A stretch of DNA of 64,000 nt from a virus. Positions 34,430-56,729 of this stretch are shown piece by piece (position 1 is the stretch's first letter; each line of letters opens with the position of its first letter). Both the position numbers and the translations under genes were made by a program. The stretch lies in the IMG/VR virus record IMGVR_UViG_3300044800_000040, positions 4,691-68,690 of that record; one strand, given 5' to 3'. The notes beneath the pieces were generated by a model that did no database searches, was not told the origin of the DNA, and saw only the letters and a program-made list of their open reading frames with translations.

Positions 34430-34438
34430 ATTATACGC
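34430..34438 (-). promoter_or_regulatory. GCGTATAAT promoter motif
   Basis: Exact motif at the head of a 200-nt intergenic leader. Confidence 0.7.
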
Positions 34439-36405
34439 TAGCCGCAGACCACCGCATAACAGGACAGGACGAGGCCGGCCCGGCCGCTGGCGTAGTAGGG
34501 CTCCTTGAAGCACTCCAGCACCAGGGCGGCGTGGGGGTTGTCCCCCTTGATCAGCACGCTGGTGAAGTAGCCGAGCACCGAGCGGCGGATGGACTCCTCG
34601 TCCTGGTCTGCCAGGCCACGTAGGATGGTGGCGATGGGTGCCCAGGTCAGCTTGCCCTTGCCCATGAGCGCACGACACAGCTCGATGGTGGCAGACAGGT
34701 CAGCCGCCGCCTTGTCCACCATCTTGACCTGATCCGCAGGGGAGAGGTCGATGAGCGCCTCGAGGATGGACAGGGCGAGCCTGGCACTGCCCACGGCATT
34801 GCGTGCGATGAGCTCAACCACTTCTTCCGACACCTTGGCCTTCTCGGCACGGCATACCCGGTTGACCAGGGCAATGAGCTTGGCTTCGGTAAGGCTGCTC
34901 ACCTCGTAGGTTGTGAGCCGGGTCTTGACCGTCGGCAGCAGCTTCTGCGGCTCGGTCGTCGCCATGAGCACGAACACATGACCCGGAGGATGCTCCAGCC
35001 CTTTCAGCAAGGCATTCTGGGCGTCATTGGTGAGCTTGTGGCAGTTGTGTACCAACACCCCACCTGCGAAGTAGCTGGGGTGCCCATCGATCTCGAGGTC
35101 ATGGTATTCTACGAAGCCGCGACGAATTTCATCACTTGTGAAATCACTCGGGCCAAGTCCTGCATCACCTCCTGATTCGTAAAGCGCAACACCACCCACC
35201 CGAACGAGTGCAGGAGCTCCGTCTTTTTCGTATCCAGCAGTGAATTCCGCCTCGACCTGTGCCCACGTCCGTCCACTTCTACGGCAATTTTCAACACAGA
35301 ATTTGCGATGTCCACCTTGTAGCTGTTCGGGCACCCCGGTGCTTTCCCCGTCGGGATCACCACTTCCATCGGCCAACCAAGTGCCGTCGCCAGCAGGCGT
35401 TGAGGTTCTGTTGTCTTCCCGTTCCCTCCCCGCGCCCCCTTCCATATGCGAAGGGAGCCCTTGGCTGTCTTGGTCGCACGGGCCTTCTCCAATGTGATGG
35501 GGTTGGCCGACGGGTTGTCTCGCTGCATGCGCTGACTGTGCGCCTGTCTCTCCGCAGCCCCCTCTGGGGTCTCCATCAGAAACCGCTTCCGACTGATGGA
35601 AATCTTTGCCGCAACTTGCGCGTTGTGCACCTTGGCACGGACTTCCGGAAGTGCCATCCGTCTCACCGCTGCACATGACCTGGAGCATGTCTGCTGATTG
35701 TACTTCTCCTGTCGGTTCGGAAAGAACGGCATCGGTGTACTGCATACTGGGCACGGTCTCGTCGTTGTCATTAGGAACCTCCGCAAGCATCGCTGGTGAG
35801 CTTGTGCGGTCCACATTATGACAATTCATGGGGTATAACAAGTCCCCCTCACGAAGATCACCAGCGGGCACCCACCCTCGCGTGGTGCGGAACAGGTGCT
35901 CCCGAGAGCAGCGGATGTCCCCTTGGTCAGTATGCACCCGCGCTGTGCGCTCCAAGGGCACCTTGTTGACAAAGTGGTTGAGCACTGTGCGGAATCCCTG
36001 CATGGATTGCACAAGTTCGCCGGGCTGGATGTCTTGAATGGGTCGCACCCCGCCCAGGCACACGACAGGTGTGTCGGCCGCGAAGCACTCGTCCAGGAAG
36101 AAGACCCGGCACGGCCCGGCCATCGGCTTGAGCCGCATCTGCTGGCGCAGGTCACGGATGGAGTCGATGCCGCGGAAGTCCGCGCTGTCCACTTCCTTGA
36201 AGTCCAGCTCCATGTTGCAGCCCAGTTCGGCGGCGACGATGCGGGCAAGGGTTGTCTTGCCACAGCCCGACGGGCCGAGGAACAACATGGAGTGCGGGAT
36301 GTTCTCCCGGTCACGGGCCAGGACGTTGCGCAGGGACTCGATCACCTGGGGGTTACCAAGCATCTCGTCCAGGCTTTGCGGGCGGTGTTTATTGTACAGC
36401 GACAT
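34438..36405 (-). CDS. dnaX: Clamp loader ATPase (DnaX gamma/tau-like) with intein
   Basis: LYNKHRP, GPSGCGKTTLAR, LDE|CH, AQNALLKGLEHPP, ATTEPQKL. Confidence 0.9.
   Translation of the reverse strand: MSLYNKHRPQSLDEMLGNPQVIESLRNVLARDRENIPHSMLFLGPSGCGKTTLARIVAAELGCNMELDFKEVDSADFRGIDSIRDLRQQMRLKPMAGPCRVFFLDECFAADTPVVCLGGVRPIQDIQPGELVQSMQGFRTVLNHFVNKVPLERTARVHTDQGDIRCSREHLFRTTRGWVPAGDLREGDLLYPMNCHNVDRTSSPAMLAEVPNDNDETVPSMQYTDAVLSEPTGEVQSADMLQVMCSGETDGTSGSPCQGAQRASCGKDFHQSEAVSDGDPRGGCGETGAQSAHAARQPVGQPHHIGEGPCDQDSQGLPSHMEGGAGREREDNRTSTPAGDGTWLADGSGDPDGESTGVPEQLQGGHRKFCVENCRRSGRTWAQVEAEFTAGYEKDGAPALVRVGGVALYESGGDAGLGPSDFTSDEIRRGFVEYHDLEIDGHPSYFAGGVLVHNCHKLTNDAQNALLKGLEHPPGHVFVLMATTEPQKLLPTVKTRLTTYEVSSLTEAKLIALVNRVCRAEKAKVSEEVVELIARNAVGSARLALSILEALIDLSPADQVKMVDKAAADLSATIELCRALMGKGKLTWAPIATILRGLADQDEESIRRSVLGYFTSVLIKGDNPHAALVLECFKEPYYASGRAGLVLSCYAVVCG
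35044..36087 (-). mobile_element. Intein (348 aa) in clamp loader Walker B
   Basis: CFAADT...CSREHLF...YHDLEIDGHPSYFAGGVLVHN followed by Cys. Confidence 0.92.
35109..35771 (-). CDS. DUF559/Vsr-like endonuclease in the +1 frame of the intein
   Basis: GGAGG RBS; CPVC..CSRSC; YKVDIA..KIAVEVDGRGH..DTKK..GWVVLRFTN. Confidence 0.85.
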   Translation of the reverse strand: MTTTRPCPVCSTPMPFFPNRQEKYNQQTCSRSCAAVRRMALPEVRAKVHNAQVAAKISISRKRFLMETPEGAAERQAHSQRMQRDNPSANPITLEKARATKTAKGSLRIWKGARGGNGKTTEPQRLLATALGWPMEVVIPTGKAPGCPNSYKVDIANSVLKIAVEVDGRGHRSRRNSLLDTKKTELLHSFGWVVLRFTNQEVMQDLARVISQVMKFVAAS

Positions 36406-42060: not shown

Positions 42061-43833
42061 CTACTTGCCGCAGAGCGCCATGAGTTCGGCGCGGGCGCTG
42101 GAGCCCTTGAAGGTGTCCTCAAGGAACACGCCCTTCAGCGAGCTGTAGCCCATCACCGAGTGCTGCTTCTCAACGCCCCGGGCGGTCATGCACAAGTGCT
42201 TGGCCTCGATGATGCAGGCGGCACCCTTGGGCTGGAGGTGCGTCATGAGCGCCTCGGTGACCTGCTCGGCAATGCGCTCCTGCACCTGGAGCCGGCGAGC
42301 GTAGACCTCGAGGATGCGGGCCAGCTTGCTGACTCCGATCACCTTGCCGTCGGGGATGTAGGCGATGGTGGCGTGCCCGAAGAACGGGATCATGTGGTGC
42401 TCGCAGTTGTGGACGACAATGCCGTTCGCCACGAAGTTCTGGTGCCCTGGCACTTCCATGCACCACACGTCTTCGGTGTAGTTGAGCTCCTCAACTCCGA
42501 GTACCTTGTGATTCGGTACGCGCTGCTCCTTCCAACTGCGCTTGACGGACTCGGACCGCTTCTTGCACATTGCTTCCCGCTTGTCCGGGTCAGCCATCAT
42601 CTTTGCCAGGCCGGCCCACTGCGCGGCATCGAACGCTTCCCGCTCCTGCGTCGTCATCCTCGCCCAACGCTCGGCCTCGCGTGCCCCACGCCCGTCCTCT
42701 TGCGCGTGCAAGCGGGAGTGAGCACTCGGGGACAGGATGGACAGATTGCTCGGGTCATTGTTCGCCGGGTTGCCGTCGAGATGGTGGACGTGCTCATGCT
42801 GGCGCAGCTCTCTGCCGAGCATGGCCGCCATGATCTTCCGGTGCTCCGCAACCAGCTTGCCGTCCTTGTACTGAATGTGGCTCCTGGGCTTGTCCGCGTG
42901 CATGATGATCCCACGGAGCAGGGCAACCACCGATTCGCCGGGAAGCAGGTCCGCCGCCGCCACCCACCCGCGCTTGTATGTCAAGAAGCGGTGGTTGGGG
43001 GTGCAGATGACAGTATCCTTATCGGTGTACACCCGCACCAGCTTGGCGTCGCGCTGGGTGATCCTCGGGTTCTGGCAGCGCACGAGGTCGAACCGCTGGG
43101 TGTCCTCGTTCCAACTGTACACCCAGTCTCCGTCTGCAAGGCGACTGATGGGCACACGGCCCTTTGGGGTTTCGATGAAGGTGGAGCCTACAAGGCACGT
43201 GGAGTAGAACTCCACGTCCTTGAGGTAGACCATGCCGCCGCTGGCCTTCTCGTTGAAGACCTTGAACAGCTCCTCCACGTCGGAGTGGTAGCCTTCGAAG
43301 AGCTTGCCGTACGACTTGACCACCCTGGCCGGGGTCTCCAGCAAGCCCTCGCGGTTGGGGTCCTCGCCGATGTACTCGAGGATGCGGACGATGTTGTCCT
43401 CCGGCCCGGTCTCGCCCTTCATGGTCTCCCACCAGAACTCGACCCAGGTGTCCAGGGTGAACAGGCCGGCTTCGATCATGTAGTTGCGCTGCACCGGGGT
43501 GAAGTCAGAGTTGTTCGGCTGGGCGGAGCTGTGCTTCTTGTACGTCAGCGCCGCGAAGGGGAAGCCGAAGAACCGCTCCCTGGTCGCCCCGGTGTCACAG
43601 ATGTCGTCGACCACCAGGACCTCGGGGTCCGGCCCGGCGGGCAGGTCGGTGCGGATGGGCAGGTTCAGCAGGTTGGAGAGGATGATGGCCGGGTACAGGC
43701 CACCACGGGGCACGGGGTAGATGCTGCGCAGCATGCTGCCAGGGGGGAGGAACTGGCACTGCACGCGGATGTGCTTGGCAAGCTCACGGCAGAGCTGTTC
43801 CACAGTAGAGTGGTCGAGGACAACGCGGGGCAT
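42061..43833 (-). CDS. folE: Phosphoribosyltransferase-GTP cyclohydrolase I fusion with intein
   Basis: VPRGG and VLVVDDICDTGAT (PRTase); REGLLETPARV, CEHH, SKLAR, RLQVQE, HLCMTARGV (FolE). Confidence 0.92.
   Translation of the reverse strand: MPRVVLDHSTVEQLCRELAKHIRVQCQFLPPGSMLRSIYPVPRGGLYPAIILSNLLNLPIRTDLPAGPDPEVLVVDDICDTGATRERFFGFPFAALTYKKHSSAQPNNSDFTPVQRNYMIEAGLFTLDTWVEFWWETMKGETGPEDNIVRILEYIGEDPNREGLLETPARVVKSYGKLFEGYHSDVEELFKVFNEKASGGMVYLKDVEFYSTCLVGSTFIETPKGRVPISRLADGDWVYSWNEDTQRFDLVRCQNPRITQRDAKLVRVYTDKDTVICTPNHRFLTYKRGWVAAADLLPGESVVALLRGIIMHADKPRSHIQYKDGKLVAEHRKIMAAMLGRELRQHEHVHHLDGNPANNDPSNLSILSPSAHSRLHAQEDGRGAREAERWARMTTQEREAFDAAQWAGLAKMMADPDKREAMCKKRSESVKRSWKEQRVPNHKVLGVEELNYTEDVWCMEVPGHQNFVANGIVVHNCEHHMIPFFGHATIAYIPDGKVIGVSKLARILEVYARRLQVQERIAEQVTEALMTHLQPKGAACIIEAKHLCMTARGVEKQHSVMGYSSLKGVFLEDTFKGSSARAELMALCGK
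42406..43197 (-). mobile_element. Intein (264 aa) with in-frame HNH endonuclease
   Basis: CLVGST...CTPNHRF...VHHLDGNPANNDPSNL...NFVANGIVVHN followed by Cys. Confidence 0.92.
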
Positions 43834-43835
43834 GT

Positions 43836-44621
43836 TTACTCCTTGGTGTGGTCGCCACAAACGACACGGCGTCCGCCCGGCAGGTTGGGGTCGTCAGGGC
43901 CACCGACGAGGATGGTGTGCTCCGCGGTTAGCGTATTGTGCGAGATGTGGGGCAGCGGGTCGCGTCTCCCAGCCTTGGCGAAGGCCTCGATGCGTTCGAC
44001 GCAGGAGCCGCACTTTCCGCAAGAGGTGGGCTGGTCTTTGTAGCAGGTGCGGGTCAGCTCGTAGGGCACATTCAGCAGGGTGCCCATGATGGCGATGTCA
44101 CCCTTGTCCATGCCCAGGAAGGGAGCCAGGATCTCCACCCGGGAGCCGGTGCCCAGGAACAGGGCGGTGTCCATCGCCTTGATGAACTCGGGCCGGCAGT
44201 CCTCGTAGATGGCGTGATCACCCGCATGGACACCCAGGGCGATGTACGGGGCGCCCTTGCTCCAGGCCAGGCCCGCCATGAACGAGCTGAAGATGATGTT
44301 GCGTGCGGGCACGACGGTCGCGCTCATGCTGGCGTCGGTGTAGTGCCCCTCGGGGATGGCCGGGCCGTCGCCCATGAGCGCCGACTTGAAGCCGATGAAG
44401 GCATCGGTCAGGTCGATCAGAGTGCGCTGCAGGCCGTAGTGGACGCAGAGCTTGTCGGCGGCGGCGCTCTCGTACTGGTTGTGCTTGCTGCCGTAGATGA
44501 AAGAGATGGGGATGGGCTCGCAACCCTTGTCAATCAGATGGGCGAGCAGGGTGGCACTGTCCATGCCACCGCTGACGGCCACAACGACCTTGGTGCCTGG
44601 GACGAACTGCGGTGTGATCAT
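43836..44621 (-). CDS. queC: 7-cyano-7-deazaguanine synthase
   Basis: SGGMDS, VPARN, YEDCRPEF, TCY...CGKCGSC. Confidence 0.95.
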   Translation of the reverse strand: MITPQFVPGTKVVVAVSGGMDSATLLAHLIDKGCEPIPISFIYGSKHNQYESAAADKLCVHYGLQRTLIDLTDAFIGFKSALMGDGPAIPEGHYTDASMSATVVPARNIIFSSFMAGLAWSKGAPYIALGVHAGDHAIYEDCRPEFIKAMDTALFLGTGSRVEILAPFLGMDKGDIAIMGTLLNVPYELTRTCYKDQPTSCGKCGSCVERIEAFAKAGRRDPLPHISHNTLTAEHTILVGGPDDPNLPGGRRVVCGDHTKE

Positions 44622-52840: not shown

Positions 52841-52849
52841 ATTATACGC
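52841..52849 (-). promoter_or_regulatory. GCGTATAAT promoter motif abutting the terminator
   Basis: Exact motif. Confidence 0.68.
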
Positions 52850-53544
52850 TACGCCGTGAGAAAAGAGCGAAGGAGGTTTTGCGCGATGGTGCCCGTGTTT
52901 GCTTTGCCGTGGCAACTGGCGCACAGGCAGATGAGGTTGGTGGGGGTGTTGTTGTCCTTGTCGAAGTCGATGTGGTGTACATCCATCTTGCCATGAGTTC
53001 GGGAGCAGAATCGACAGGCGTTCCCATCGCGCTGCCGGATCGCTTGGCGTAGCCAACGTGTCCATTCTTTCCCGTATGGCAGGGAGCTCACTCCACCCTG
53101 CCAGTTGGGACCATCCTCCCCGCGGAACTTGCCGGTGTTTGCTTCGCGCAAACGCTCCTTCGTTGCTTGTGTGTGCTGCTTGCCGAGGAATGCGTTTGGG
53201 TTGTTCTGGTGCCATTCTTTCAGGGTGCGTGAGATTGCTTCGCGCTGATCTTGTGGTATTTGTTTGCCCTTGCTGGAGGCGGATATCTTGTCCCCCCAAG
53301 TGATCATGCGCCCCATCATTCCCCGCGAAATCTTCTGACGGGTTTCCGCGGATACGCAGTACCCCTGTTCCTTGTGCAGACGCTCTCGTTCGGCAGCCGC
53401 CACCGACATTTTTTTCTTGGCCTGTTCGGTATGTCGATGACCAGTGGAGGCCACTCGGCGGGCCTCCACTTCTTCCGGATGCTCCGCTAGTCTCTTCTTC
53501 ATGCTGGCGGAGATCTTGGCGCGGCGTTGTTCTTCGTTGGTCAC
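52849..53544 (-). CDS. Free-standing HNH homing endonuclease with NUMOD3-like repeats
   Basis: HTEQAKKKMS, RDGNACRFC, VHHIDFDKDNN..NLICLCASCH. Confidence 0.88.
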   Translation of the reverse strand: MTNEEQRRAKISASMKKRLAEHPEEVEARRVASTGHRHTEQAKKKMSVAAAERERLHKEQGYCVSAETRQKISRGMMGRMITWGDKISASSKGKQIPQDQREAISRTLKEWHQNNPNAFLGKQHTQATKERLREANTGKFRGEDGPNWQGGVSSLPYGKEWTRWLRQAIRQRDGNACRFCSRTHGKMDVHHIDFDKDNNTPTNLICLCASCHGKANTGTIAQNLLRSFLTA

Positions 53545-53577: not shown

Positions 53578-56500
53578 TCATACTCCCCTCTTTCGGCCGA
53601 TACAAGAGACGAGCTCTGCGAGGACCCCTCCTGTGGTATTCCCAACCCCATCCATATTGGACACACCGTCCAGCGCCATGCCAATCACTTGCGCCTTGTT
53701 GTGGAGAAGGGTTGTGATGTCGTCGTCGAGGGTGTCTTGGGCCACAAGGCAGTACGAGCTGACGCTCTGCGACTCCTGTCCAATTCGGAGAACGCGGTCT
53801 TCCGCTTGGAGGAGTTCCGATGGGGTCCAAGGAAACTCCACGAAGCAGGTCGAGTCCGCCGCGGTCAGGGTGATTGCCACACCAGCCGCCTTGAGCCCGC
53901 CGATGAAGATCCGGCAGGTCGGGTCCTCCTGGAAGCGGTCGATGAACGCCTGCTTCATCATCGGCGGGGTGCGACCGTCCAGGCGCACAGGGTTGAACTC
54001 TCCCAGAGCTTCGAAGAGCCCGTCCAGGATCTCATGGTGGTGTGCGAACACAACCAGCTTCTTGCCGCTGTCCATGTAGTCCTTGATCCACTCGATGGCT
54101 GCCTCGAGCTTGGCCTTGGCAGACCAGAGCTTCAACTGGGTGATCTGCGCCAGCACCTGCCCAGGCTCCTTCTTGCCCGGTCTGGCGTTCTCCACCGCGA
54201 ACTCCGCCTCGAGCTTGGCATACGCCTTCAGTGCGGCCCGGGACAGTTCCAGGGGCACTACGCTGCGCTGCTTGATGGGCAGGTCCGGCATCACGTCCAC
54301 CTTGAGGCGGCGGATCATGACGGTCTTGGTCAGCAGGGCATGCAGCTCGTCCATGTTGGAAGCGCCGTTGAAGTTCCAGCCGTAGTCGGTGCGCTTGGCG
54401 TCGCAGAACCGCTGGGTGTAATCCCAGAAGCTCGGGAACACGTCGGGGCGCAGCATGTGCAGCACAGTCCAGAACTCGATGGGGCGGTTGATGATGGGGG
54501 TGCCGGAGGTGGCCACGATGTGCCGGCAACCTGTCGCCAGGCCGGGGTGCTTGATCTTCACCTTCTGCCAGGTGGCCTTGTCCATGATCTCTTCTTCGTA
54601 CCCGACGATGGCCCGGGTGCGAGCAGCCTTGGGGTTCTTGATCGCATGGCAGTTGTGAACCAGAACTTCGTTCGCGTAGTAACTTGGGTGTCCGCTGACC
54701 TGGAGATTATACACTGTCGCACCGTCTCCAGGACCTTCTCCGGGGTCTGTACAACCTCCCAATTCCAGAATCTCAACACGCACCACCCGAGGCTGGTCAG
54801 TACCTCTGTTTTCTTGGTGTCCAGCTTCTGTGCGCGCTTGGTCTGATGTCCCCGACCATCTATCTCGATTGCAATTTTCAGTCGGGGATGGGCAAGATCC
54901 ACTTTGTAGCAATGTGGGCACTCCGGACGATTGTTTGTGGGAATAGCCACCTCCGCTGACCAATGAAGTAGGCATGCCAGAAGTTTCTGTGGTTCTGTGA
55001 GTATCCCATTCCCTCCCCGCAGGCCCTTCCACGCCCGCAGGGTCCCGTTCCGTTCCTTGGTATCTCGCATCTTCTGAATGGTGGCAGGGGAGTGCATGGG
55101 GTTCTTCTTGGTCATGCGTATTGCCGCGTCTGGTCGGGGAGCACCTTTGAGTGCTTGTGACAACTTCCTGTTGCGTTCTGGTGAGAACACCCTTTTGCGA
55201 ATTTCCGGCTGGGACATCCTCCACTTCGCGGAGCAAGATGTTCCGCAAAAGCGTCTCGGCCGATTCTTTTTCTGTGCCGCAAGGAATGTCGCCCCGCACC
55301 ACTCGCATGTCATTTCCGTCATTTTCATTTATTGTTCCCTCCTTGCGGGACACTATACCAAGAATCTTCTCAGCAGGAAACAATAATCTTCCGGTGAGGT
55401 TTTCTGCGGCCACCCATCCAGATTCCGTAAAGATGGGGTGGTTGGGAGTGCATTCAAAGCTGGTACCATCGTCGAGTACAACACGGACAAGCGTGCTCAC
55501 TTTTTTCGAGAACACCTTCTGTACCTGTCCCATTCCGAACGCATTGTACACCCAGTCCCCCACCTCTATTTCCTCGATGGGGCGTGTGCCGTGTTCTGTG
55601 CGAATGGGGGTGCCAGCGGGGAAGCACTCGTCCAAGGCAATGACCTCGGGTGTGCCAACCTGGGCGACGATCTCGCACCACCAGTCGGAGAGGATGTCGT
55701 AGTTGACGATGATGATCACGCCCTTGCTCTCTCCCTTGGCCTTGCGCACGGTGTGGTCGAAGATGTTGTCGTTCTTGCCGGGCTTGCCACGCAGGGTGAT
55801 GACGTGCGGGTCGGACATCCACTGCAGGACATGGCGCTCCCAGGACGGCTTCGCCGTGGCAGGGCACACGATCACCGCGGGGCGAAGCTCCGGGTGCAGT
55901 TGCAGGTAGCCGATGATCTGGACGGTCTTGCCGAGACCCATGTCGTCGGCGAGCAGGGCGTTGCCGCCCATCTGGTCGAGGAAGGACACGCCCACGGTCT
56001 GGAAGGGGCGCAGCGTCTTCTGGAGGCCGGGGATCGCCAGGTCGGCGTTCTCACCCTTGGTGAAGGAGGCGAACCAGTCCTGCAGCGCCTTGCCCCGGAG
56101 TTCGAAGCCCAGGTTGCGCAGACCCTCGACGGCCTGGAACGACTGGGGCAGCGTCCAGAGCTTGCGGTCGGGGCACCAGCGGCGGCCCGGCAGATTCTTC
56201 ACGTCGGCGACGGTCTGGGGGTTGTAGGGGAAGCTCACCAGAAGCGTATTGCCCTCGAGGGTGACGAACTTGGTCGGGCTCTGGCTGCTGGCTGCACTCG
56301 CCTGGGGCACGGCCACAGGGGGCACGGGGCGCTTGCCGTTGGGTCGGGGAGCCACCTCGGCGTGCATCAGCTGCTTGGCATACTTGTGCAGCTTGGGCTT
56401 GATGAAGGACATCTGCCGCTCGGTGAGGAAGCCCTTGTCCTTGTACCACTCGGCAATGCTGGTCAGGATGTCAGCGTCGATCATGTTGAAGCCAGCGCCG

Positions 56501-56643
56501 TTCTGGTGGGAGGTCGTCTGCATGTACTTCTCGTCCTCCTCCTGGCGATGGTAGAGGGTCATGAGCGCGCCGATGGCGAACTCGTCGTTGTTCTTGATCT
56601 GCTCGATGATGCGCGCGACTTGTTCTTGCTGTTCGGCCTTCAT
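53578..56643 (-). CDS. SNF2-family (HARP/SMARCAL1-like) helicase with intein
   Basis: LADDMGLGKT, DE|CHAIKN, SGTPIINRP, QAEDRVLRIGQ; AAGGAG RBS before MKAEQQ. Confidence 0.92.
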   Translation of the reverse strand: MKAEQQEQVARIIEQIKNNDEFAIGALMTLYHRQEEDEKYMQTTSHQNGAGFNMIDADILTSIAEWYKDKGFLTERQMSFIKPKLHKYAKQLMHAEVAPRPNGKRPVPPVAVPQASAASSQSPTKFVTLEGNTLLVSFPYNPQTVADVKNLPGRRWCPDRKLWTLPQSFQAVEGLRNLGFELRGKALQDWFASFTKGENADLAIPGLQKTLRPFQTVGVSFLDQMGGNALLADDMGLGKTVQIIGYLQLHPELRPAVIVCPATAKPSWERHVLQWMSDPHVITLRGKPGKNDNIFDHTVRKAKGESKGVIIIVNYDILSDWWCEIVAQVGTPEVIALDECFPAGTPIRTEHGTRPIEEIEVGDWVYNAFGMGQVQKVFSKKVSTLVRVVLDDGTSFECTPNHPIFTESGWVAAENLTGRLLFPAEKILGIVSRKEGTINENDGNDMRVVRGDIPCGTEKESAETLLRNILLREVEDVPAGNSQKGVLTRTQQEVVTSTQRCSPTRRGNTHDQEEPHALPCHHSEDARYQGTERDPAGVEGPAGREWDTHRTTETSGMPTSLVSGGGYSHKQSSGVPTLLQSGSCPSPTENCNRDRWSGTSDQARTEAGHQENRGTDQPRVVRVEILELGGCTDPGEGPGDGATVYNLQVSGHPSYYANEVLVHNCHAIKNPKAARTRAIVGYEEEIMDKATWQKVKIKHPGLATGCRHIVATSGTPIINRPIEFWTVLHMLRPDVFPSFWDYTQRFCDAKRTDYGWNFNGASNMDELHALLTKTVMIRRLKVDVMPDLPIKQRSVVPLELSRAALKAYAKLEAEFAVENARPGKKEPGQVLAQITQLKLWSAKAKLEAAIEWIKDYMDSGKKLVVFAHHHEILDGLFEALGEFNPVRLDGRTPPMMKQAFIDRFQEDPTCRIFIGGLKAAGVAITLTAADSTCFVEFPWTPSELLQAEDRVLRIGQESQSVSSYCLVAQDTLDDDITTLLHNKAQVIGMALDGVSNMDGVGNTTGGVLAELVSCIGRKRGV
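54558..55328 (-). CDS. DUF559/Vsr-like endonuclease in the +1 frame of the intein
   Basis: AAGGAGG RBS; CEWC..FCGTSC; YKVDLA..KIAIEIDGRGH..DTKK..GWCVLRFWN. Confidence 0.85.
   Translation of the reverse strand: MKMTEMTCEWCGATFLAAQKKNRPRRFCGTSCSAKWRMSQPEIRKRVFSPERNRKLSQALKGAPRPDAAIRMTKKNPMHSPATIQKMRDTKERNGTLRAWKGLRGGNGILTEPQKLLACLLHWSAEVAIPTNNRPECPHCYKVDLAHPRLKIAIEIDGRGHQTKRAQKLDTKKTEVLTSLGWCVLRFWNWEVVQTPEKVLETVRQCIISRSADTQVTTRTKFWFTTAMRSRTPRLLAPGPSSGTKKRSWTRPPGRR
54652..55626 (-). mobile_element. Intein (325 aa) in helicase Walker B
   Basis: CFPAGT...CTPNHPIF...VYNLQVSGHPSYYANEVLVHN followed by Cys. Confidence 0.92.
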
Positions 56644-56663
56644 GTCTTGCTCCTTGGTTGATG

Positions 56664-56729
56664 TTGGGTGCCTCATCAGGCCAGGAGACCCAAGCTCCTA
56701 GCGACAGGGGGCGCACCCCCTGTTTCGGC
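56664..56729 (-). ncRNA. Type II hammerhead ribozyme
   Basis: gcc-GAAA-caggggg/ccccctg-UC-gctaggag/ctcctggc-CUGAUGA-ggc; loop uugggu can pair with tail acccaa. Confidence 0.92.

Follow-up and report, generated by a model that had tools for sequence, protein, structure and literature searches.

Textbook inteins are single-polypeptide elements with an in-frame endonuclease, and the locus described here raises the question of whether an intein can carry its homing endonuclease as a separate gene, written over the intein in another reading frame. The locus lies in a stretch of viral DNA of 64,000 nucleotides, hereafter the window, which corresponds to bases 4691-68690 of the 68,690-bp IMG/VR virus record IMGVR_UViG_3300044800_000040. 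This record has direct terminal repeats and a completeness estimate of 100%, and the GC content of the window is 62%. A gene for an SNF2-family helicase is interrupted there, in the part that encodes the Walker B motif, by an intein, and the DNA of this intein also holds an open reading frame (ORF) for a Vsr-like nuclease. We interpret the arrangement as a contiguous, cis-splicing class-1 intein inserted in Walker B at DE/CH (here and below, the slash marks the junction), with the homing endonuclease encoded by a separate gene that is overprinted in the +1 frame, and we assign this interpretation a probability of roughly 0.85. Coordinates are positions in the window, and every feature located in this way is on the minus strand.

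The helicase precursor is an ORF of 1032 aa (53578..56676) that has no internal stop and is continuous through the intein. It belongs to the SNF2 family, with Pfam matches to SNF2-rel_dom (97.6 bits, cut-off 24.9) and Helicase_C (43.8 bits, cut-off 23.5). The N-extein of 350 aa (55627..56676) terminates in ALDE, the Walker B motif or motif II, and the C-extein of 357 aa plus the stop codon (53578..54651) begins with CHAIKN. Between them lies the intein of 325 aa (54652..55626), which extends from a Cys1 codon starting at 55626 to a terminal Asn codon ending at 54652 and has the junctions ALDE/CFPAGT and VLVHN/CHAIKN. Its GC content is 0.49-0.58, compared to 0.62-0.68 in the exteins. The marks of a class-1 intein are all present, namely Cys1, a block-B TPNH motif with His63, the HN pair at residues 324-325, and a +1 Cys. 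Among 66 aligned inteins, C1 and N325 are invariant and H63 is nearly so.

An AlphaFold model of the intein, built in the host frame with an alignment of 66 relatives, predicts two ordered Hint lobes joined by a disordered linker. The Hint N-lobe (intein residues 1-94; 55345..55626) has a predicted local distance difference test score (pLDDT) of 96-98 over residues 1-80, 83 over residues 81-90 and 58 over residues 91-100, and the Hint C-lobe (residues 280-325; 54652..54789) scores 91-97 except for one loop block at 53. The linker (residues 95-279; 54790..55344), which is the -1 register of the nuclease gene, scores 44-67 per 10-residue block, with regular secondary structure limited to short helices at 122-131 and 263-266 and to the end of a helix at 85-94. 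The best Foldseek match of the predicted Hint fold is the gp41-1 intein (6qaz, E 1.4e-7), one of 36 PDB chains found at E<=1e-3, which comprise inteins, bacterial intein-like domains and hedgehog Hint domains. The intact catalytic residues, together with the placement of the element in replication genes of a virus genome estimated to be complete, point to an intein that would be competent for protein splicing.

The nuclease ORF starts with an ATG, encodes 256 aa plus a stop (54558..55328), and begins one base past a host codon boundary, at intein residue 99.3, which places it in the +1 frame relative to the host ORF. A Shine-Dalgarno (SD)-like AAGGAGG (55338..55344) lies 9 nt upstream of this ATG. 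A preliminary description of this DNA had claimed a +1-frame nuclease intein in the SNF2 helicase with an open intein frame, an AAGGAGG motif and an ATG at 55328, and we recovered all of these features in their expected places. The ORF matches DUF559 in Pfam (51.9 bits, cut-off 20.6). It encodes an N-terminal Cys4 zinc-finger-like motif (C8, C11, C28 and C32; 55233..55307), which has weak FCS/MYM zinc-finger matches, and a Vsr-like or EDxHD catalytic domain at nuclease residues 140-206 (54711..54911), with D144, E155, D157, H161, D170 and K173. The conserved E, D, H and D of the Vsr-like core (E155, D157, H161 and D170) identify the protein as a member of the EDxHD / DUF559 group. In an alignment of 72 nucleases, the four cysteines and all six listed residues of the catalytic domain are invariant, and Met1 is nearly invariant. 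Profile searches matched the DUF559 structure 3HRL at 4e-14 and the catalytic domain of I-Bth0305I (3R3P) at 6e-4. The AlphaFold model, with a mean pLDDT of 86.8 and high values over most of residues 1-210, predicts a fold for which Foldseek ranks 3HRL and 3R3P first (TM 0.67-0.69), followed by Vsr. A search of PHROGs returned no good family for the nuclease, the matches being weak and to families without a known function.

The same architecture recurs in an unrelated gene of this genome. A clamp-loader (DnaX/RFC-like AAA+) precursor ORF of 655 aa (34438..36405; Pfam DNA_pol3_delta2 71.2 bits, AAA 48.7 bits) contains an intein of 348 aa (35044..36087) at FLDE/C...VLVHN/CH, and within it lies a nuclease ORF of 220 aa (35109..35771), also in the +1 frame. 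The open frame of this second nuclease extends from 35816, and the ATG at 35771, which is preceded by GGAGG at 35782-35778, is likely its true start. The two nucleases of the window are 45% identical over 204 aa (E 2e-58). Thus the preliminary description was accurate in calling them homologous, in placing both inteins at LDE/CH in Walker B with VLVHN/CH ends, and in reporting the same +1 offset in both genes. The genome holds only these two copies of the overprinted element, and their empty sites have in common a 13-nt core, TGGACGAG/TGCCA.

Because long spurious ORFs are common in DNA of 62% GC, the open host frame had to be tested against chance. Neither nuclease ORF of the window is crossed by a single stop in the host frame, while the third frame contains 9-11. 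Synonymous resampling and permutation, with 3000 replicates each, gave an expectation of 4.0-6.5 host-frame stops, and zero-stop trials amounted to 0-1.5%. A host-frame stop requires a nuclease codon ending in T followed by a codon that begins with AA, AG or GA. Before codons of this kind, T-ending codons are entirely absent from both ORFs (0/63 and 0/52), as compared to 34/193 and 28/183 before other codons. Moreover, the nuclease ORFs of 80 related IMG/VR loci, which span 29-62% GC and carry 7-46 stops per locus in the third frame, contain 2 host-frame stops where 1029.7 are expected under synonymous permutation. Host-frame openness is thus under strong selection, and the depletion of stops in the intein frame across homologs, which the preliminary description had proposed as a check, is borne out.

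Selection on the nuclease frame is also apparent in the overlap. Among 459 pairs at 45-97% protein identity, mismatch rates at the three nuclease codon positions are 0.386/0.351/0.537, and amino-acid identity is 0.489 in the frame of the nuclease, compared to 0.318 in the host frame and likewise in the third, the comparison being based on mismatch rates and identities. As identity in the host frame equals that in the third frame, the linker is conserved for openness and not as a protein sequence. In the Hint N-lobe and the C-extein, the host frame bears the ordinary signature of coding sequence. Within the overlap, conservation of the coding type is confined to the nuclease frame. With a separate nuclease ORF in another frame, an open host frame and selection in the nuclease frame, the element is an out-of-frame endonuclease intein.

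Relatives of this nuclease are found in both phages and bacteria. A tblastn search of 50,697 phage records matched 42 of them, and among the 40 matches listed each falls under a single annotated feature, usually a helicase. We opened five GenBank phage genomes, those of Vibrio phage CP-T1, Pseudomonas phage MR14, the Vibrio phages 159E43-1b and 1.194.O, and Corynebacterium phage phi673 (loci L001-L005, under accessions JQ177061, MT104474, OZ196825, MG592563 and MG324353). In all five, the helicase coding sequence has no internal stop, reads ...DE/CF...VHN/CH and carries the nuclease match at +1; it is annotated straight through the intein, and the nuclease ORF has no annotation of its own. A profile scan of IMG/VR yielded at least 598 pattern hits and at least 429 relatives confirmed by tblastn, of which the best 80 were examined. 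Hint halves were sought with hidden Markov models built from seven known Hint N and C parts. Both halves were present at 77 of the 80 loci, the N half alone at two and the C half alone at one, with the nuclease at +1 in all 80, and no host-frame stop separates Hint-N from Hint-C in 75 of the 77 loci with both halves. Genome contigs, sampled at one genome per bacterial or archaeal species, gave 230 tblastn relatives, of which 80 were kept and 64 had a full-length nuclease. Both Hint halves accompany the nuclease at +1 in 59 of these 64, with 0 host-frame stops, and the C half alone, also at +1, in a further two. Accordingly, the offset is +1 in the window and in all 141 intein-embedded loci examined (80/80 from IMG/VR and 61/61 genome-contig loci with a Hint neighbor). 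An in-frame nuclease, which would make a canonical bifunctional intein and would have contradicted the preliminary description, was found at none of them.

These counts also bear on the most mundane explanation, that the frame offset is a frameshift artefact of sequencing or assembly. The a priori indel error rate of metagenome assemblies lends it some credence, and nothing more does. Two compensating errors would be needed per copy, and the same offset is found in two diverged copies within one genome, in the five isolate phage genomes, in the 80 IMG/VR loci and in the 61 genome-contig loci. The comparative data already refute such an artefact, as the preliminary description had argued from the two copies, and we consider its probability to be practically nil.

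The remaining three of the 64 genome-contig loci (L096, L138 and L149) have no Hint neighbor, and their would-be host frames contain 2, 18 and 16 stops. Two of them (L149:2857-3498 and L138:1564-2205) are free-standing nuclease genes of 213 aa, each directly upstream of an intein-less DE(C/S)HH helicase, and the free-standing homologs begin at the same Met as the embedded ones. The helicase ORF of L138 appears to lack N-terminal motifs. The free-standing copies thus provide a natural control: given the stops in them, the nuclease sequence by itself does not avoid stops in the -1 register; only embedded copies do so.

The location of the nuclease on the same strand as its host gene, between the splicing lobes and at a constant +1 offset, would also be compatible with programmed +1 ribosomal frameshifting, followed by a return shift, that yields a canonical bifunctional intein. 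The host frame is stop-free over the whole nuclease gene, however, with 2 stops across relatives against ~1030 expected, and this counts against frameshifting because openness is needed only for straight read-through. The nearly invariant Met1 of the nuclease, which the free-standing homologs share, and the SD motifs that precede it in the window likewise argue for independent initiation, such that we regard frameshifting as very unlikely.

We hypothesize that the overprinted intein operates through two populations of ribosomes. Those in frame 0, starting at the helicase ATG, would produce the 1032-aa precursor, in which a disordered linker of ~185 aa tethers the Hint N-lobe (~94 aa) to the C-lobe (~46 aa). 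This linker would be a wrong-frame by-product of the nuclease gene, constrained only against stops. The Hint lobes would associate and the intein would splice itself out, restoring the DECH Walker B motif of the helicase. Other ribosomes would initiate at the internal AAGGAGG/ATG and produce the free 256-aa nuclease, with its N-terminal zinc finger, a helical DNA-binding region and the C-terminal Vsr-like EDxHD catalytic domain. In a co-infected cell, the nuclease would cleave alleles that lack the intein, at or close to the DNA that encodes Walker B, and repair would copy the whole element, as in homing.

An alternative to a contiguous intein is a fractured gene with a split intein, of the type described by Dassa et al. 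in 2009, in which a free-standing nuclease gene divides the helicase gene and the helicase, made as two polypeptides, is joined in trans. The nuclease belongs to the same Vsr-like family as in those cases, the closest solved Hint structure, gp41-1, is a split intein, and two of the IMG/VR relatives, L062 (TGA, 3009) and L083 (TAG, 3108), each have one stop in the linker. These two loci are otherwise typical, and their stops could be split-intein intermediates, pseudogenes or sequencing errors. The window itself has 0 host-frame stops between its Hint lobes; its host gene is unbroken, as in the other 75 of the 77 relatives, and host-frame openness is under strong selection. We therefore hold a fractured gene to be even less probable than frameshifting.

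The helicase-borne nuclease of the window departs from its relatives at the C-terminus. An atypical tail of residues 211-256 (54561..54698), with a pLDDT of about 55-63, runs through the Hint C-lobe and, counting the stop, through 94 nt of extein DNA. In each of the 76 relatives whose junctions were mapped, the stop of the nuclease ORF lies 8-89 nt before the intein end; eight of these junctions had been placed 6-9 residues too far downstream by the regular expression used, and once they are corrected the nuclease stop still falls short of the intein end. The overrun of ~94 nt past the splice junction that the preliminary description reported is therefore real in the window helicase copy, but it is not a shared trait, and we take the extension into extein DNA to be incidental. 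The Hint C-lobe DNA is read in the +1 frame by the 3' part of the nuclease ORF. In relatives, the median overlap between this ORF and the HintC match is 29 codons, which means that the Hint-C stretch is truly dual-coded.

The same tail raises the possibility that the window nuclease ORF is a decaying relic, and the element a mini-intein with a long junk linker that has lost the capacity for homing. A stop kept by all 76 mapped relatives has been lost, a low-confidence extension of 46 residues has been gained, and recent movement is not supported by any close intein-free allele. On the other hand, the ORF is intact and has a strong AAGGAGG and ATG, every invariant catalytic and zinc-finger residue is present, residues 1-210 are modelled at high confidence, and substitutions across the family indicate purifying selection in the nuclease frame. 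We thus consider a relic unlikely, albeit the least unlikely of the alternatives to an overprinted, functional nuclease gene.

Several observations weigh against the overprinted-gene interpretation. In addition to the linker stops of L062 and L083, the window helicase copy lacks the usual nuclease stop, and its low-confidence tail could impair nuclease activity. The Pfam Intein_splicing profile scores 27.3 bits on the window precursor, below the cut-off of 35.8 that relatives pass at 44.9-51 bits. An SD-like motif occurs 4-12 nt upstream of the nuclease start in just 44 of the 80 relatives, although this count is unreliable because the start rule applied, the first ATG in the open frame, is crude. 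Predicted RNA folding at the two nuclease starts of the window is no more stable than in shuffled sequences (z -1.19 and -0.69), and hence there is no sign of a regulatory hairpin at either start. The samples are also somewhat redundant, in that near-duplicates occur among the 80 IMG/VR loci (the 82 tree rows contain 74 distinct nucleases) and one contig appears twice, as genome locus L088 and as IMG/VR locus L025. Moreover, the analysis establishes the anatomy, the selection and the predicted folds, while splicing, internal initiation, the cleavage target and homing are inferred. Lastly, a scan of viral contigs with the C-extein found no relative and thus no near intein-free helicase allele. 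Megablast of the helicase locus against the 50,697 phage records gave no match, and tblastn of the whole precursor found no close cultured phage, only distant helicases matched in the C-extein at no more than ~41% identity. Since no close intein-free allele was found, intein-plus and intein-minus forms cannot be compared for the window phage lineage, and recent mobility in this lineage is at most putative.

Across the family, insertion sites are all in or just after Walker B. Most are of the form hhhhDE/C, and some lie 2-5 residues later, for example at DEAH/C, DEIHK/C or DEATR/C (approximate registers). Host labels, assigned by clustering of C-exteins with Pfam run on ten representatives, comprise 39 clamp loaders, 37 SNF2-type helicases, 1 terminase and 1 unknown. 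The terminase label belongs to L079:2214-4520, with MDEATR/C, which has a weak Terminase_6N match of 23.6 bits overall against a cut-off of 22 and no single stretch that passes; it would be a third class of ATPase host. We also noted that the clamp-loader precursor of L058:882-4487, at 1202 aa, seemingly contains two inteins, an upstream one with a LAGLIDADG_3 match and the +1 Vsr-like one.

On a quick maximum-likelihood tree of the nucleases, in which deep branches are weakly supported, the host label changes three times, the minimum possible, as compared to a mean of 26.8 for shuffled labels, and none of 200 shuffles was as low. Movement between ATPase types thus appears to be rare. The helicase-borne nuclease of the window is placed among SNF2-borne nucleases and its clamp-loader-borne counterpart among clamp-loader-borne ones. 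The two copies, standing in separate host-specific groups, are therefore not the product of a recent intragenomic jump or duplication. The preliminary description had proposed a mobile family that moves between Walker B motifs of different ATPases; the occurrence in several ATPase hosts supports this, and the rarity of host switches and the placement of the two copies in separate groups qualify it. The SNF2 group includes nuclease pairs of ~50% identity whose C-exteins share only ~18%, which suggests transfer between distant helicases.

The genes around the helicase form a minus-strand block for replication and nucleotide metabolism, which includes the clamp-loader-like AAA+ gene, QueC, GTP cyclohydrolase I, an HD-domain protein and the SNF2-family helicase, as well as a family-A DNA polymerase fused to a UDG-like domain. 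Directly downstream of the helicase gene, a 231-aa ORF (52849-53544) carries a NUMOD3 motif, and its translation, inspected by eye, has an HNH-like CxxC...HH...CxxCH pattern at the C-terminus; the product is probably a homing-type endonuclease, free-standing and adjoining the invaded helicase. A third intein, of 264 aa (42406-43197), is situated in the GTP cyclohydrolase I gene FolE (ORF 42061-43860), at ...YST/C...VVHN/CEHH. Its endonuclease is an ordinary in-frame HNH (Pfam GTP_cyclohydroI 205 bits, Intein_splicing 64 bits, HNH_3 31 bits). As this intein is canonical and the other two are overprinted, a single phage harbors both kinds. QueC (43836-44621; 177 bits) lies beside FolE, and the pairing hints that the phage may modify its DNA with 7-deazaguanine.

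Intein endonucleases that lie out of frame have been reported before. The principle is therefore known, and what appears to be new is the sense-strand +1 Vsr-like family. Out-of-frame or antisense intein endonucleases were proposed by Gorbalenya (1998; "Non-canonical inteins"), as described by preprints of 2025-2026. In actinophages, inteins have been reported with antisense LAGLIDADG, antisense Vsr-like and frame-3 endonuclease VII-like ORFs (Gosselin, Arsenault & Gogarten, bioRxiv 10.1101/2025.01.02.630785). Like the element in the window, these are contiguous inteins with an endonuclease ORF between the splicing blocks and outside the extein frame; they include a Vsr-like/EDxHD-type nuclease, and capture of a free-standing phage endonuclease by an intein was proposed for them. 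They differ in that the Vsr-like nuclease is described as antisense and the sense case is endonuclease VII-like in frame 3, whereas here a Vsr-like nuclease is encoded in sense-strand +1. Their hosts are actinophage DNA polymerase, minor capsid, terminase and thymidylate synthase genes, as opposed to the Walker B of SNF2 helicases and clamp loaders at more than 140 loci in many taxa. Furthermore, that study suggested drift into frame, whereas the offset observed here is fixed across nucleases that diverge to ~30% pairwise identity.

A further parallel is the dnaX intein of cyanobacteria, whose LAGLIDADG endonuclease lies in the +2 frame (Phillips, DeSimone & Gogarten, bioRxiv 10.64898/2026.09.14.751524). 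It too interrupts a clamp loader; its in-frame middle part is predicted to be disordered, an overlapping ORF with an SD of its own gives a confident nuclease fold, and the frame of the nuclease is under purifying selection. The cyanobacterial PolIII-gamma intein directly follows Walker B (Novikova 2016, PMC4760082), the same kind of insertion site as that of the clamp-loader copy in the window. The cyanobacterial case is LAGLIDADG, +2, cellular and limited to one host gene, and the present family is Vsr-like/EDxHD and +1.

In fractured genes, a free-standing endonuclease gene of the Vsr-like or GIY-YIG type lies between the halves of a split intein (Dassa et al. 2009, PMC2677866). They resemble the present element in the nuclease family found between intein halves and in their occurrence in phage replication genes, including a helicase, and the nearest solved Hint structure to the window intein, gp41-1, comes from that work. 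However, their host genes are broken into separate ORFs with overlaps of 6-69 bp, whereas here the host frame is open over the entire nuclease gene and, unlike in those cases, the Hint C-lobe and the nuclease C-terminus are dual-coded, over ~29 codons in relatives. The nuclease itself is comparable to I-Bth0305I, an EDxHD homing endonuclease of a group I intron in Bacillus phage recA (Taylor et al. 2011, PMC3239194; PDB 3R3P), which likewise has a Vsr-like core with conserved E, D, H and D and an N-terminal DNA-binding extension (TM-score 0.69). I-Bth0305I is intron-encoded without overprinting, and its target and cleavage chemistry were determined by experiment, whereas both are deduced for the window nuclease. 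Finally, the ShiLan insertion in phage methylases conceals an HNH endonuclease that is out of frame (Arsenault et al. 2025, PMC11855218). This insertion is also stop-free in the host frame, with its endonuclease in another frame, but it has no detectable splicing domain and stays in the host protein as a loop, whereas intact Hint lobes flank the overlap here. Full-text searches, which did not extend to supplements such as Supplemental Table 1 of the 2025 preprint, where the frames and hosts of its Vsr-like cases may be listed, turned up no Vsr-like endonuclease encoded in sense-strand +1 within contiguous inteins at the Walker B of helicases or clamp loaders. What stands out in the present family is its size, the +1 offset fixed across deep divergence, and the existence of free-standing relatives of the same nuclease.

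To our knowledge, out-of-frame intein endonucleases have until now been described only as rarities. With at least 429 tblastn relatives of the nuclease in IMG/VR and 230 in genome contigs, the overprinted design is common and, maintained under measurable selection, evolutionarily stable. It also exposes a blind spot in annotation, given that the nuclease gene was missed in all five GenBank phage genomes opened and is poorly covered by PHROGs. The family further provides a natural dual-coding system, in which avoidance of stops is the sole constraint on one frame, and a stretch of ~29 codons is constrained in both. We offer tentatively, at somewhat less than even odds, that this lineage of overprinted inteins is no transitional accident but the largest and most stable so far. 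A Walker-B mini-intein would have captured a free-standing EDxHD nuclease once, with the +1 offset fixed ever since, and the arrangement would have persisted at 29-62% GC and through nuclease divergence to ~30% pairwise identity while spreading, in phages and bacteria, to clamp loaders, SNF2 helicases and a terminase. Host-frame read-through over the nuclease start may throttle translation of the nuclease, tying the dosage of the homing enzyme to expression of the invaded gene. More generally, because the free-standing and embedded states of one nuclease family are both in hand, these loci directly support a route to intein mobility in which a free-standing endonuclease invades a mini-intein.

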